Sequence record: NC_024790.1 | Strand: one strand, 5' to 3' | Source of the DNA: Escherichia phage vB_EcoP_PhAPEC7 | DNA length: 64,000 bases | Shown: piece after piece, positions 1,492-27,840 of the stretch | How the letters are laid out: each line of letters opens with the position of its first letter | Position numbering within the stretch: the stretch's first letter is position 1 | Made by a program: the position numbers and the translations under genes | The notes under the pieces: generated by a model | Seen by the model: the letters and a program-made list of their open reading frames with translations, nothing else | Databases searched by the model: none | What the model was told of the DNA's origin: nothing

Positions 1492-2544
1492 ATGGCGAGC
1501 ATTGACTCCTTGACTGTATGTAATACACGCCAAGCCCGTAATTTTATTATCCGTGCCCTGCAAGCAGGTAACGTACCGTTCCTGACTTCATCACCAGGCA
1601 TGGGTAAATCTGCAATTATCCGTTCTGTTGCAGAAGAATTTGGCATGAAGCTGATTGACCATCGTCTGTCTACTTCTGCCCCGGAAGACCTGTCTGGTCT
1701 ACCATTCCGTAATGGTGACCGTGCAGAATTTATCCCATTCGCTGACTTATTCCCTATCGAGGGAGATGAAGTACCGGAAGGTTATAATGGCTGGCTCCTG
1801 TTCCTTGATGAGTTCAACTCAGCTAAGAAAGAAGTAGTAGCTGCAGCATACAAACTGATTTTAGACCGCATGACTGGACAGAAGAAACTTCACCCTAATG
1901 TGATGATTATCTGTGCCGGTAACAAAGCTACTGACCGTGCTATCGTTAACCCACTGGGTACTGCAATGCAGTCTCGTGTTGTCCACTTCGAAATGGAACT
2001 TAACTTCGACATCTTTGTTGAAGACGTAATGATTCCGCAGGAATGGGATGAACGTCTGGTTGCATTCTTACATGCTAACCCTGGCTATCTGCATGACTTC
2101 GATCCTGCCCACAAGAACAAAACGTTCTGTTGTCCTCGTACCTGGGACTTTGTTAACAAAGACCTCAAGAATCGACCAGAAGGTGCTCTGCCTGATGAAG
2201 ATTCCCTATACTACAGTGGATTTGTTACACCAGGTAAGGCTGTAGAGTTTGTTCAGTTCACTCAGGTATACAATCGTATGATTACGATTGAGAAGGTAGT
2301 CAAAGACCCGCTGGGCTGTGCACTGCCTGAAGATAATAACCTGTGCTGGGCTACCGTTAACCATCTGGCTAACAAGACTACTGAAGATAACTTCGCTGAT
2401 GTACTTCAGTATATTGAACGCTTTAAAACGTTCACTCATAAGATTCTGTACTTCCGTACAGTAGGCAGAGCATTACCAGAAATTCAGGCTACCCCTGAAT
2501 GGCGTAAGGCTGCTGCCAATATCTCTCGTTACATTCACGGATAA
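1492..2544 (+). CDS. AAA+ ATPase (MoxR-like)
   Basis: Walker A SPGMGKSA and Walker B LLFLDEFN; strong RBS AGGAG upstream; followed by a VWA protein, the usual MoxR/VWA pairing. Confidence 0.6.
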   Translation: MASIDSLTVCNTRQARNFIIRALQAGNVPFLTSSPGMGKSAIIRSVAEEFGMKLIDHRLSTSAPEDLSGLPFRNGDRAEFIPFADLFPIEGDEVPEGYNGWLLFLDEFNSAKKEVVAAAYKLILDRMTGQKKLHPNVMIICAGNKATDRAIVNPLGTAMQSRVVHFEMELNFDIFVEDVMIPQEWDERLVAFLHANPGYLHDFDPAHKNKTFCCPRTWDFVNKDLKNRPEGALPDEDSLYYSGFVTPGKAVEFVQFTQVYNRMITIEKVVKDPLGCALPEDNNLCWATVNHLANKTTEDNFADVLQYIERFKTFTHKILYFRTVGRALPEIQATPEWRKAAANISRYIHG

Positions 2545-2551
2545 TCACAAC

Positions 2552-3727
2552 ATGAACCAGATACCTCAGCACACACTTAGTGATGAACAACTCATGCGTG
2601 AGTATGACCGTATTCAGGCGCAGGCATTCCTTGGACGTAGTGCAGCGTTTTTTGGTTCATTGCTGTGTAGTCTTAAGTTCTCATGGAAACGCGAGGACTG
2701 CCCTACTGCATGTACTGACGGGATAGAACTCCATTTCAATCCAGACTTCTTTATCTGGATGTGCCCTGATGCGAGAGAAACAGTGCTAATGCACGAACTC
2801 TGGCATGTGGCATATCTACATGGCATCCGCTGTGGAAGCCGTGACCCGGAAATCTGGAACCAGGCATGTGACCACTTCATTAACCTTCAGTTAGAGGAAG
2901 ATGGATACAAGTTCACTGGTATCGACAAAGGCATTTGCAAAGACCCTCAATATAAAGGTTGGGTCGAAGAAGACATCTACGATGACCTGATGAAGAACCC
3001 TCAGAAAAGGCAGAAGCCGTCAGGGGGTGCTGGAGCAGGTCTTGCTGGCGACATGAAAGCTCCCTCTTCGGGGCAGTCCCAGGGTGCTGTTGTCAACAAC
3101 GTAGTACGTGCAATGCAAAGCCAGAAGATGGCTGGTGGAATGATGCCCGGTAAAGGTGCTGGTCGTATGGAAGAGGTAATTACCCAATTCCTTAAGCCAG
3201 TGGTTCCATGGCAGGAAGTCCTGCTGAACTTCTTTACCGACATTGATGACTCACACTATACGTGGGCCAGACCTAACCGTCGTTTTACTGACATCTATCT
3301 ACCATCTCTGGAAGATGATGAAGGACGCTTACGACACTTAGCTTACTTTGAAGATGTATCTGGTTCCATTAGTAGTGCTGACTCTCTACGTTTTAACTCA
3401 GAGGTTGCCTACGTTAAGAGCCAGTTCAATCCTAAGAAGATGACCCTTATTACCTTCGACGATATTATCCAAGAAGAAATAGACATCACTGAAGAAGATA
3501 CTTTTGAAGAAATTAAGATTACTGGTCGTGGTGGTACAAACCTTGAACCAGTGCGTGAATGGATTATTAAGAATAAGCCAACCGCTGCAATCATATTCTC
3601 CGATATGTATGTTCGTCCAATGGAAGAATTACCATTTGATATCCCTATCATCTGGTGTGTTCTGAATAATCCCAATGCTACCGTACCTTTTGGGGAGGTA
3701 GTTCATATCCCTAAAGGAATGAAATAA
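2552..3727 (+). CDS. VWA domain protein with N-terminal HExxH metallopeptidase-like motif
   Basis: HELWH motif near the N-terminus; MIDAS-like DVSGS motif in the C-terminal half; adjacent to the AAA ATPase. Confidence 0.55.
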   Translation: MNQIPQHTLSDEQLMREYDRIQAQAFLGRSAAFFGSLLCSLKFSWKREDCPTACTDGIELHFNPDFFIWMCPDARETVLMHELWHVAYLHGIRCGSRDPEIWNQACDHFINLQLEEDGYKFTGIDKGICKDPQYKGWVEEDIYDDLMKNPQKRQKPSGGAGAGLAGDMKAPSSGQSQGAVVNNVVRAMQSQKMAGGMMPGKGAGRMEEVITQFLKPVVPWQEVLLNFFTDIDDSHYTWARPNRRFTDIYLPSLEDDEGRLRHLAYFEDVSGSISSADSLRFNSEVAYVKSQFNPKKMTLITFDDIIQEEIDITEEDTFEEIKITGRGGTNLEPVREWIIKNKPTAAIIFSDMYVRPMEELPFDIPIIWCVLNNPNATVPFGEVVHIPKGMK

Positions 3728-16729: not shown

Positions 16730-17435
16730 AAAATAAATTGGGCTATTTAAACCATGTGAATTCAGGGGAAACCCAGACCGGGCAATCCTGAGCCAAATCA
16801 ACCATACCTGCCTTAGGAGGCACATGATGGATATCAAGAATCTGTACGAGAATACTGACCTATCTCAAGCAGAAATATCAAAGCGTTTGGGTATTAATTA
16901 CAAAAAAGTCTCTAAATATATTAGGGAGAACTACAGTAAAGAATACCGCCAAAGCAGAAATGCAAAGTCTTACCGACGCTCCAAGCTGGGGAAAAATAAC
17001 CCCATGCTCGGTAAATTCGGCAAAGACCATCACAACTACAAAGGTTTAGTATCCGATAGTAAGGGCTACTTAATGGTACTTAAACCCGATTGGTATACTG
17101 CACGCAAAGGTAGCAAACATGTTTTTGCTCACCATGTAGTGGTATGTGAGGCACTTAATATCAGTGAAATACCTAAGGGCTGGTGTGTGCACCATTGTGA
17201 TGAAAATCCATACAACAACGACTTTGATAATCTTGTATTGCTAAGTGTTCCTGACCACGCTCGGTTACACTCAGCATTGAAAGGTGCAACGACTATCTCG
17301 AAAGAGAGTACACTCATGTGGGTGGAAGCGCATGGCACGCCTTACTATCTGGCGTGATGATATAGTCTGCTCTGCATAGGAATATGCAGCAGTCGAAAGA
17401 CGGGCATGGATTAACGACCCATGCTGAACAACAGG
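16730..17435 (+). mobile_element. Group I intron in the DNA polymerase gene, carrying an HNH homing endonuclease gene
   Basis: 5-prime exon ends in U (..GAGCCU); internal guide GGGCU can pair with it. P/Q-like core elements (TGAATTCAGGGGAAACCC, GGGCAATCCTGAGCC) at 16755-16795, R-like AAGGTGCAACGACTATC at about 17281 and S-like GATATAGTC at about 17359. Intron ends in G at 17435; joining the exons restores GRLSASEP-NLQTIPSGSKY in frame. Confidence 0.75.
16824..17357 (+). CDS. HNH homing endonuclease (intron-encoded)
   Basis: Own RBS AGGAGG; HNH motif HHVVVCEALNISEIPKGWCVHHCDENPYNNDFDNLVLLSVPDHARLH; N-terminal HTH-like segment. The 3-prime coding end overlaps the intron R-like element. Confidence 0.75.
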   Translation: MMDIKNLYENTDLSQAEISKRLGINYKKVSKYIRENYSKEYRQSRNAKSYRRSKLGKNNPMLGKFGKDHHNYKGLVSDSKGYLMVLKPDWYTARKGSKHVFAHHVVVCEALNISEIPKGWCVHHCDENPYNNDFDNLVLLSVPDHARLHSALKGATTISKESTLMWVEAHGTPYYLA

Positions 17436-22299: not shown

Positions 22300-22632
22300 A
22301 TGTCCGAAGAAATCTCCAACGATATGAACACTCAGCTAATCCTGATTGCAGGATTCTCAGCTAGTGGTAAATCAGCATCACTGCGTAATATCCGGAACCA
22401 GGAACGCTGGCTGTATCTGAATACAGAAGCGGGTAAACGTCTACCTTTCCGTAATAAGTTCAACACCTACAATATCGAAGACCCATACCAGATTTGGGAA
22501 GCATTCGATGTTGCATCTCCTGGTGGTGAAATGGCAGACGATGTTGATGGCATCATTATCGACTCTGCTACCTTCATGATGGACATGCTGGAATCCCAGT
22601 ATGTATTACCATCTGCTAATACCCAAAAGGCT
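22300..22632 (+). CDS. RecA-like (AAA_24/Sak4-type) ATPase, exon 1
   Basis: Walker A GFSASGKSAS. Exon is exactly 111 codons and ends in U (..AAGGCU), which can pair with an internal guide GGCC 10 nt into the intron. Confidence 0.55.
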
Positions 22633-23404
22633 TAACTACTAAGGCCCGTTAGTCAGTAATGATTAATGATAACTGATTGAATTCAGGGAAACCCCTAACG
22701 TAAAGACGAGGGCAATCCTGAGCCAAGACTTAATCTTTCTCCGGTTTTTATTAACGGAGTTACAAACATGAGTAAGAAAAGATTCGGTAATGAATTACAT
22801 CCTCTGTATTACACATGGTTAACCATTAAACAGAGATGTGACAACCCTAAGCACGCTAGTTATAAAAACTATGGGGCTAGGGGGATAACTAGAGCAGAAG
22901 AGTTCTCTGACTTCAAAGTGTTTGCTGCCTATCTAGAATCATTAGATGGTTACGCAGACAGGGAGAGACTGGGTCTTACTTTAGATAGAATAGGTGGTTC
23001 ACTTGGCTATGTGCCAGGAAATCTGAGATAGGCAACTAGAACAACTCAGACCATTAATTCCAGAAAAAGAAGAACCAGTAAAGCTACCTACTTAGGGATA
23101 GGTTTAAACACCACTAAGAAAAAATGGTCAGCAAGAATCTGCAACGGTAATGAAAGAATCTTTGTAGGTAATTTTGATTCCGAGATTGAAGCTCTGAAAG
23201 CTAGAAATGCCTACATTATTGAGCATGGTTTACCTCATGCCATTCAAAAGATTAAGTAAGGTGCAACGACTATCCAGTAATGGAGTAGGGCAGAAGCTAA
23301 TGCTGCTCGAAGCGGTCAGCATCCTATCGTAATTAACGAGGATGAAGATATAGTCTGGACTGCATGGAAACATGCAGATGCAGGTAATGCTGCTGGGAGT
23401 GTAG
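22633..23404 (+). mobile_element. Group I intron in the ATPase gene, carrying a degenerate homing endonuclease gene
   Basis: Shares core elements with the polymerase intron: TTGAATTCAGGGAAACCC and GGGCAATCCTGAGCCAA (22676-22728), AAGGTGCAACGACTATC (about 23259-23277), GATATAGTCTGG plus a CTGCATGG..ATGCAG hairpin (about 23348-23380). Ends in G at 23404 just before exon 2. Boundaries inferred by analogy, plus or minus a few nt. Confidence 0.65.
22768..23258 (+). pseudogene. Homing endonuclease with AP2-like DNA-binding domain, interrupted by an in-frame TAG
   Basis: RBS GGAG then ATG at 22768. N-terminal half YYTWLTIKQRCDNPKHASYKNYGARGI...LDRIGGSLGYVPGNLR. TAG at 23029-23031 falls where related endonucleases have Trp. 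Frame then continues through an AP2-like segment (YLGIGLNTTKKKWSARICNGNERIFVGNFDSEIEALKARNAYIIEHG) to TAA at 23256-23258. Confidence 0.5.
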
Positions 23405-23848
23405 TTGCGTACACTCTTGAACGTATCGTGGGGAGACTTTGCACAGTTCTTTAAAGTACTGCTGCAACAGAAAGTCGTTAAGTTTGGTAAGCCGGTAATC
23501 ATTACTGCCCATGCCAAAGATGAACTCGACGAAGCTGCTGGTGTAATGAAAACATTCATCCCGGTCAAGGGTTCACTGAAGAACAATGGCCTTGAGGCTT
23601 ACTTTTCTACAGTGGTTTACGCAGAACGTGTAGACATTAAAGAACTGGAGAAGTACGGCAACAAGATGCTTGATATTACGGAAGAAGAACGTGACTTAGG
23701 CTATAAGCACGTATTCCAGACACGTCCAACCAAGAAGTCTGTTGGTAAACGTCTTCGCTCACCAATGGGTATGTTCGATAAGTCTCAGACTTACATTGAT
23801 AATGATGCCCAAAAACTCTTAGACCATCTGGCTGAATACTACGCTTAA
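23405..23848 (+). CDS. RecA-like (AAA_24/Sak4-type) ATPase, exon 2
   Basis: Frame is open immediately after the intron terminal G; preceded in frame by TAG at 23402-23404, so it cannot extend upstream. Spliced product would be about 259 aa. Confidence 0.5.
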   Translation: MRTLLNVSWGDFAQFFKVLLQQKVVKFGKPVIITAHAKDELDEAAGVMKTFIPVKGSLKNNGLEAYFSTVVYAERVDIKELEKYGNKMLDITEEERDLGYKHVFQTRPTKKSVGKRLRSPMGMFDKSQTYIDNDAQKLLDHLAEYYA

Positions 23849-27113: not shown

Positions 27114-27307
27114 CCTGAAGTCGCCAGGTACTTATGGCAAACGGGTAGTAACGAACTAGTCATTCGTCAAACGCCCACCCAATTATGAGTCAGCAAGAAC
27201 GCCTTCACTTAAACTTAAACAAAAAAGCTTAACGCAATGATTATGTAGGGGTATGTAAGGATTGCGAAGAAGGAGCCAGTTAGAGCCTGGCATGACTCAC
27301 CTATTAT

Positions 27308-27381
27308 GTCCGCTTAGCTTAGACTGGGAAAGCAACCGACTAATAATCGGAAGGTCACTGGTTCAAATCCAGTAGTGGACA
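27308..27381 (+). tRNA. tRNA, anticodon AAT (formally Ile); 74 nt, CCA not encoded
   Basis: Manual cloverleaf: acceptor GTCCGCT/AGTGGAC (one G-U), U8, D-stem GCTT/AAGC with G18G19, anticodon stem CCGA/TCGG with loop CTAATAA (U33, A37), T-stem ACTGG/CCAGT with loop TTCAAAT, discriminator A. Confidence 0.6.
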
Positions 27382-27840
27382 CCCATTCAGCAGTAACATA
27401 GTCCTGATTGCATAGCACTCTAAAGACAACACTGGTAAGACAGTCCAGTGGCTGCTAATGTATTGTTATTCCCCTCGACGGGAATTTCGCTGGAGAATAG
27501 GAACTACTTAAATCCTAGCCTGAGTATTGCAATATGTGACTATCAATCACGAGAGACGGGACGACCAGACCCCTGAAGCTGGCAATATTGCATATTCATA
27601 CAAGCCTCCCAGCTATGGGTAAATAGTACTAAGTCCCTCAGAGCCGTCACTCTGGGGGACTTTTTTATTTGAGCATTAATAATTGGATAATCAATATGAT
27701 TGATCTAATCTTAACCCCGTATGCCTATGAGGTAACGGATAACCGAGGATGTAAGTCTTTGGTATTTGCAGGTAGCGTAGCCTATAACAACGCAGTTATG
27801 TTTAAGTACAAACTCAAACCACTCTATGAGGCTAATAATG

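Follow-up and report, generated by a model that had tools for sequence, protein, structure and literature searches.

Group I introns of subgroup IA2 that carry an endonuclease open reading frame (ORF) in the loop of P6 are a textbook class in phages, with td, nrdB and nrdD/sunY of phage T4 among them. The DNA polymerase introns of the T7-like phages PhiI, W31 and Pf-WMP3 are also phage IA2 introns (PMC3428280), and a group I intron of an N4-like phage is on record in td of Vibrio phage pVa5 (PMC5746245). We analysed a stretch of 64,000 nucleotides (nt) from Escherichia phage vB_EcoP_PhAPEC7 (NC_024790.1), hereafter the window, whose source is a G7C-like N4-like coliphage of the genus Gamaleyavirus, family Schitoviridae. 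Positions 22633-23428 are, with high confidence, a 796-nt mobile IA2 group I intron in the Sak4-like (N4 gp44-type, AAA_24) ATPase gene of this phage. An earlier note on the same DNA had proposed that a group I intron splits a RecA-like ATPase gene here, and this is borne out by Rfam matches on both halves, by covariation, and by the gap in intron-less alleles. We found no description in the literature of an intron in a Sak4-like/gp44 gene or in Gamaleyavirus (including the phages Bas96 and PhAPEC5).

The intron resembles the phage IA2 introns of T4 and the T7-like phages in its helices P3-P9, its P7.1 and P7.2 linked by GUA, its P9.1/P9.2 tail, the U-G pair at the 5' splice site, the terminal G and the position of its ORF in the P6 loop. 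Like them, it begins with a UAA codon, interrupts a conserved motif of a DNA-metabolism gene and is sporadic among close relatives. It differs from them in its host gene, a Sak4-like/AAA_24 ATPase of N4-like phages, and in its predicted endonuclease, which is PacI-like with an AP2 domain, not GIY-YIG or canonical HNH. The gene is laid out as follows.

22300..22632, plus strand: ATPase exon 1, 111 codons with the 3' end ...AAG GCU, from the ORF list and its translation; collinear with the intron-less PhAPEC5 gp51 and G7C gp44.
22633..23428, plus strand: ATPase group I intron, subgroup IA2, 796 nt, starting with UAA and ending with G23428, from the exact gap in the intron-less allele, Rfam Intron_gpI on both halves and covariation across 11 introns.
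23429..23848, plus strand: ATPase exon 2, 139 codons and a stop, opening UGG GGA (W-G-D-F...), from the alignment of intron-less alleles and 120 homologs.

Flanked by primase and SSB genes, the ATPase gene is a homolog of N4 gp44. The spliced protein has 250 amino acids (aa), as has PhAPEC5 gp51, and matches Pfam AAA_24 (4.2e-10) and PHROG 124 (phrog_124, "Sak4-like ssDNA annealing protein", 1.1e-49). With these matches and the gp44 homology, the label of RecA-like ATPase was a fair one. The 111-codon 5' exon given before agrees with the ORF list and translation (22300-22632), and the TAA stop that ends its ORF is formed by the first three bases of the intron. Both exons are undamaged and in the same frame, and the gp44-type gene is kept across Schitoviridae.

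The presence of the intron is precise and sporadic among phages more than 94% identical. The region around it is 97.9% identical to Escherichia phage vB_EcoP_SP5M, 94-96% identical to RudolfBernhard_Bas96 and vB_EcoP_PW8, and similar to about 50 further G7C-like N4-like coliphages (Gamaleyavirus). Three of the roughly 50 Gamaleyavirus records carry the intron (SP5M, Bas96 and PW8) and the remainder have a clean junction. The exon flank alters together with the intron: exon 1 ends with AAGGCU in all carriers vs AAAGCC, AAGGCA or AAAAGU in intron-less alleles, and the splice-site U is found in all intron-containing alleles and not in the G7C-type intron-less ones. The length of the co-converted tract varies. 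In the exon-1 tract 22620-22632, PW8 departs from the PhAPEC5 type in the last 4-5 nt only, whereas the window, SP5M and Bas96 do so over about 20 nt. These differing lengths are consistent with independent homing events or with later recombination.

We identified the group I core with the Rfam model Intron_gpI (RF00028). The 5' half (22623-22892) scored 30.9 bits (E = 8.6e-6) with a correct alignment to the P1-P6 part of the model, and the 3' half (23150-23377) scored 49.5 bits (E = 2.4e-11) against the P6'-P9 part. The gathering score of this model is 50 bits, and the introns of the window are detected at the E-value threshold only; at the gathering threshold, a scan of the whole window returned a tRNA alone and neither intron. 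We tested covariation with a P3-P9.2 model on a whole-ribozyme alignment of 11 related introns from which the ORFs were removed. Standard pairs make up 95.7% of the cells, against 34-43% when the partners are slid by 1-3 columns, and both sides change in a compensatory manner in 37 of the 56 pairs. None of 500 shuffles attained the observed pairing or covariation. An earlier alignment of the 3' domain, in which P9.1 and P9.2 were out of register by one or two columns, was set aside for the pair counts and replaced by folding each sequence and re-making the alignment.

All core helices from P3 to P9 were located in the window sequence, in canonical order and with the P3/P7 pseudoknot. In the following list the elements from the P3 5' strand to P6 were placed by Rfam alignment, coordinates and pair counts, and those from P7 to P9 by the 49.5-bit Rfam match, coordinates and covariation.

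22629..22646, plus strand: P1, exon GGCU and intron U (22629-22633) with the guide AGGCC (22642-22646) and a U22632-G22643 wobble at the 5' splice site; read from the sequence.
22649-22666, plus strand: P2, with a GUAA loop; read from this sequence only.
22673-22679, plus strand: P3 5' strand.
22683-22688 with 22716-22721, plus strand: P4.
22693-22696 with 22709-22712, plus strand: P5.
22722-24 (5' strand) and 23260-62 (3' strand), plus strand: P6.
23268-73 (5' strand) and 23350-55 (3' strand), plus strand: P7.
23274-83, plus strand: P7.1.
23288-23308, plus strand: P7.2.
23313-19, plus strand: P3 3' strand.
23322-42, plus strand: P8.
23360-77, plus strand: P9.
23380-93, plus strand: P9.1, a tail hairpin that folds alike in related introns.
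23396-23417, plus strand: P9.2, GGAGUGUA (23396-23403) paired with UACACUCU (23410-23417).
Up to G23428, plus strand: single-stranded 3' tail UGAACGUAUCG, the intron terminus.

The 11 aligned introns have an invariant GUA that joins P7.1 to P7.2, both lying between P7 and the 3' strand of P3. This arrangement, with its G-U-A link, is the signature of subgroup IA2 (PMC3428280), to which we therefore assigned the intron.

In PhAPEC5, the intron-less allele has a gap that coincides exactly with 22633-23428, and the same clean junction ...GCN|TGGGGAGA... is found in G7C, Mimir124, Moonfish and PBM-2. The 5' splice site after U22632, as placed in the earlier note, stands: U22632 pairs with G22643 in P1, the guide is AGGCC, and the intron opens with UAA. 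The 3' site had been put at G23404, for an intron of 772 nt. This is 24 nt short of the true end at G23428, since the gap relative to intron-free homologs is 796 nt, not 772. The exon 2 of 148 codons that followed from it must also be corrected, as its initial eight codons (LRTLLNVS, 23405-23428) lie within P9.2 and the 3' tail, and their columns hold residues in 0 of 120 homologous ATPases (63-94% identity). All 120 homologs read ...NT(Q/M)KA|WGDFAQFFK across the junction, and with G23428 the window reads ...QKA|WGDF..., collinear with every one of them.

The fold of the tail gives the same end. The disputed 24 nt (23405-23428) are the 3' strand of P9.2 and the terminal "UGAAC-N5-G" tail, and G23404 is the first loop base of the P9.2 hairpin; among related introns, 5 of the 7 pairs in this helix vary in a compensatory way. 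When folded singly, 8 of 9 related introns have a tail made of P9, P9.1, P9.2 and about 10 unpaired nt ending as (U)GAAY-N5-G; the exception is KIL1, whose minimum free energy fold diverges after P9. In two relatives the aligned terminal G is set as the splice site by the host protein: by the invariant NrdD motif SMG|CRSFL in the nepoznato nrdD intron, and by the terminase motif FDEL|THF in Shewanella phage 1/40. The same-site introns of two contigs described below, L021 and L022, end with ...GAACAUAUCG|UGGGG and ...GAUUAAG|UGGGG. We placed the 3' splice site at G23428 because the intron-less gap, the 120 homologs, the P9.2/tail fold and the fixed sites of the relatives all agree.

The P6 loop holds two further features.

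22739..22759, plus strand: hairpin CUCCG-N11-CGGAG, holding the GGAG Shine-Dalgarno 8 nt upstream of the endonuclease ATG; read from the sequence.
22768..23259, plus strand: predicted homing-endonuclease gene, 163 codons (492 nt), PacI-like His-Me finger and AP2, with an in-frame TAG at 23029-23031 (codon 88).

The ORF ends with a TAA (23257-59) directly before P6'. Its product is assigned to phrog_374/8790 and has an AP2 domain at its C terminus; searches against Pfam and NCBIfam found no family. An AlphaFold model made from 44 homologs (mean pLDDT 93.7) contains a three-stranded sheet packed on a helix, which has sequence similarity to AP2 (PF00847), and a beta-beta-alpha-metal fold without the catalytic His and with a Tyr in the omega loop, as in PacI. 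The invariant residues of the family are D73, R74, Y81, N85, Q94 and N97. As in the PacI group, an invariant Arg (R74) stands at the position of the catalytic His, and Y81 lies in the loop between two strands, in the place of PacI's catalytic Tyr. Histidine-less PacI-type His-Me finger nucleases form group 20 of Jablonska et al. 2017 (PMC5714182). Unlike PacI, the protein is fused to AP2 and encoded by an intron. In PacI the active site is reportedly flanked by two cysteine motifs that bind zinc; such clusters are absent here, where the 163-aa family alignment has one nearly invariant Cys (C24). We therefore call the protein PacI-like and do not class it as a member of that family. From its sequence and model, we predict it to be a homing endonuclease. 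The hairpin at 22739-22759 sequesters the GGAG and might, speculatively, limit translation of the endonuclease. The segment AAUCUUU (22728-34) can pair with AAAGAUU in the first codons of the ORF, and together with the hairpin it might act in translational control.

SP5M, Bas96 and PW8 carry the same intron at the same site (ribozyme 99.7-100% and ORF 95-98% identical), with the endonuclease gene intact at 163 codons, whereas the window has TAG at codon 88. Five changes in the ORF are specific to the window: D76G, W88stop (TGG-to-TAG), A95T, E144K and one synonymous change, the missense changes being at 22994, 23050 and 23197. D76G falls in the conserved LDRID segment and Trp88 is nearly invariant in the family. 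The TAG cuts off the helix that carries Q94 and N97 and the entire AP2 domain. Between the window and Bas96, 0 of 304 ribozyme positions differ vs 24 of 492 ORF positions (Fisher p = 1.3e-5), and 18 of these 24 differences are synonymous. By this count, constraint is stronger on the ribozyme than on the endonuclease ORF. The endonuclease appears to be decaying, in the window phage only, which is the pattern expected after intron fixation, when the endonuclease is no longer selected.

Homologs of the endonuclease were found on contigs of N4-like size. Two of these have a group I intron at the same K-A|W-G site: L021 (Logan SRR6675345_9690), with an 819-nt intron at 2346-3164 (endonuclease 65% and ribozyme 74% identical to those of the window), and L022 (JGI metagenome Ga0590109_0000307), with an 803-nt intron at 2344-3146 (50% and 63%, respectively). 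They differ from the window in their host ATPases, which are 51-52% identical to its own, and by compensatory changes in peripheral helices. In L021 an uninterrupted reading frame links the end of the endonuclease gene to exon 2 by way of the 3' ribozyme. The ATPase intron is one of a lineage that is specific to this site in N4-like phages.

Vibrio phage 1.097.O (MG592470, L023 1783-2974) encodes a homologous endonuclease (44% identity) that is free-standing and overlaps the end of an unbroken gp44-like ATPase gene; no group I intron signal was found at this locus. Bonocora and Shub (2009) are said to have proposed that a free-standing endonuclease collaborates with an ORF-less intron and then invades it. 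It is possible, though we hold this as a tentative and rather doubtful suggestion, that N4-like phages preserve both stages of mobile-intron formation: the free-standing endonuclease in 1.097.O, and the intron-borne one at the fixed K-A|W-G site, a setting seen in three lineages with ATPases 51-100% identical.

Several observations weigh against reading 22633-23428 as a spliced 796-nt intron. No single Rfam match of the intron attains the gathering score. We attribute this to the 492-nt ORF in the P6 loop, which divides the model and thereby splits the scores and keeps them below 50 bits; related introns with an ORF score 31-45 bits and those without one 72-106 bits. The TAG in the endonuclease gene may be an error of sequencing, or an amber-suppressor host may read through it. 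We infer both splicing and its exact junction from the sequences compared. P10 is weak with the proposed exon 2 (a U-A pair, then a mismatch), and three weak pairs (UUG with UAA) can form at the site 24 nt upstream. We tried P10 as an arbiter of the 3' site, where it slightly prefers G23404, and dropped it, as relatives whose junction is beyond doubt, such as nepoznato nrdD, have an equally weak P10 or lack it. An intron of 772 nt ending at G23404, with the junction ...GGCU|UUGCGUAC... and a 258-aa ATPase with LRTLLNVS added, would be followed by an open frame, and its exon would start with UUG, able to make this 3-bp P10 with the UAA beside the guide sequence. Such a boundary is nevertheless most improbable: it fits neither the gap in intron-less alleles nor the 120 homologs, it would fall at the first base of the P9.2 loop, and the aligned distal G ends the introns of L021, L022 and the nrdD and terL relatives. 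The insert could alternatively be a free-standing endonuclease cassette, with the ATPase made as two separately translated polypeptides and no splicing. SP5M and PW8 do annotate the halves as separate ORFs, the Gamaleyavirus phages SP5M and ST4 have HNH insertions without intron signal in their polymerase genes, and the homologous endonuclease of Vibrio phage 1.097.O is free-standing. We give this explanation hardly any credence, however, as a complete group I core with strong covariation flanks the ORF and is more constrained than it, no ATG, GTG or TTG stands where exon 2 begins by homology (UGG at 23429), and the break falls inside the highly conserved NTQKA|WGDFAQFFK. A decayed relic that cannot splice, with the ATPase a pseudogene in the window phage, might seem to agree with an endonuclease gene that has one nonsense and three missense changes specific to this phage. 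The chance of this is very small given a ribozyme 100% identical to those of Bas96 and SP5M, two undamaged exons in frame, and a gene conserved across Schitoviridae. For the intron ending at G23428, our analyses establish its fold and boundaries, the selective constraint on it, its sporadic distribution and the co-conversion of its flank.

The window has another IA2 intron, which the earlier note had taken for a copy of the same lineage.

16730..17435, plus strand: DNA polymerase intron (IA2), Rfam 38 and 17.7 bits, an exact 706-nt gap in G7C, Bas96 and others.

Both inserts match Intron_gpI, and the ATPase insert folds as a P3-P9 core. The two introns are only distantly related: they share the subgroup and the core blocks, and the view that they are copies of one lineage is not supported. 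The four shared blocks reported earlier are present in both, in the same order (GAATTCAGGG..AAACCC, GGGCAATCCTGAGCCAA, AAGGTGCAACGACTATC, GATATAGTCTG..CTGCAT..ATGCAG), and the distance of 10 nt from the 5' splice site to the guide is also true of both. That two copies arose from one another by homing or transposition within the genome would explain these shared traits, but we regard it as extremely unlikely. By reading, the same distance is 8-11 nt among related introns. The blocks match by BLAST the introns of phages of Staphylococcus, Bacillus, Vibrio, Pseudomonas, of Campylobacter-labelled phages and of many others, and from this sequence comparison they are the conserved, universal IA2 catalytic core. 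Pairwise alignment of the two ribozymes gives 57% identity overall and 58% in the 3' domain, with 76% in the 5' core over aligned columns and 57% when gaps count as mismatches. Each intron is closer to introns of other phages. The ATPase intron is 74% identical overall to that of L021, a distant N4-like contig with the same site. It is 90% (5' core) and 74% (3' domain) identical to the polymerase intron of Ralstonia phage BOESR1, and its 3' domain is 66-71% identical to those of the terminase and nrdD introns of phage PDX, Shewanella 1/40, phage 18-1-2 and nepoznato. In its own 3' domain, the polymerase intron has 83% identity with the polymerase introns of the T7-like phages pphageT21 and PPWS1, the latter at the same codon. 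It is shared with PhAPEC5 and Moonfish, has its relatives in Autographiviridae (pphageT21, PPWS1), and differs from the ATPase intron by a shorter P5, by its P7.2, P9.1 and P9.2 variants, by its host gene, and by an ORF (16824-17357) for an HTH and HNH_3 endonuclease (HNH_3 2.3e-7, phrog_7545) that overlaps the core. The two endonucleases are unrelated. The distributions in sister phages are independent (PhAPEC5 and Moonfish vs SP5M, Bas96 and PW8), no sister-phage record in our collection has both introns, and the lineage at the ATPase site extends to phages with only about 51% identity in the ATPase. Transposition within the genome is unsupported because of these closer relatives elsewhere, the unrelated endonucleases and the independent distributions; that each was acquired independently, from co-infecting phages, agrees with all of these data.

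Within the polymerase intron, the HNH ORF extends into the 3' half of the ribozyme (17281-17435), across P6', P7, P7.1, P7.2, P3' and P8. The same bases therefore encode protein and form the catalytic core.

By analogy with the family mechanism, the ATPase intron would splice in two steps initiated by guanosine. The RNA would fold into P1-P9.2, an external guanosine would attack after U22632, which is paired with G22643 in P1, and the 3'-OH of exon 1 would then attack after the terminal G23428. This would join ...AAG GCU to UGG GGA..., with the predicted junction ...CAAAAGGCU|UGGGGAGAC..., and yield the 250-aa ATPase collinear with its intron-less homologs. On unspliced RNA, translation would halt at the UAA with which the intron opens. 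The same analogy suggests that mobility is driven by the endonuclease during co-infection: the intact endonuclease of the sister phages presumably cuts intron-less ATPase alleles, and repair would then copy the intron with a short stretch of flanking exon. In the window phage the intron would still splice and has probably lost autonomous mobility, because its endonuclease gene has nonsense and missense changes and its ribozyme is unchanged.

Some other loci were noticed. The polymerase genes of SP5M (L014 899-1441) and ST4 (L015 774-1430), and probably that of PD205, are split by a different HNH ORF, some 290 nt downstream of the point where the polymerase intron of the window is inserted. As it gives no Rfam group I match, the insertion may be a free-standing endonuclease or an unrecognised element. 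We considered the SP5M insertion as a copy of the ATPase intron and rejected it, given this position and the lack of a group I signal. The large terminase gene of Shewanella phage 1/40 (L006) has three group I matches (135-333, 1430-1605 and 2070-2271) within about 2.3 kb. The ATPase gene of Escherichia phage U1G (L020 301-1052) has no insert yet is annotated in two parts (ORFs 301-702 and 768-1052), likely owing to a frameshift or a sequencing error. The sole tRNA of the window (27307-27385) is called tRNA-Ile with the anticodon AAT (Rfam, 62.4 bits); an unmodified wobble A is unusual.

The GenBank record of Bas96 already annotates the ATPase as a joined coding sequence of two pieces, and the Bas96 paper does not mention introns. 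SP5M annotates two separate ORFs and PW8 exon 1 only, neither of them joined. The gene of the window should be annotated as join(22300..22632, 23429..23848), giving one 250-aa ATPase instead of two hypothetical proteins, and the same applies to SP5M and PW8. The comparison of the two introns also calls for caution, as the sharing of core blocks by two group I introns of the same genome is no sign of a recent duplication. The Sak4-like/gp44 ATPase of Schitoviridae joins the known host genes of IA2 introns, and a site-specific intron lineage is shown to have spread across N4-like phages. The window phage represents a stage with a ribozyme still maintained by selection and an endonuclease in decay. 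If our reading is true, this lineage would bring a homing-endonuclease family with a predicted histidine-less, tyrosine-dependent His-Me finger. If N4-like phages do preserve both stages, and the free-standing enzyme cuts at or near the insertion site, they would provide a natural example of the Bonocora-Shub route.

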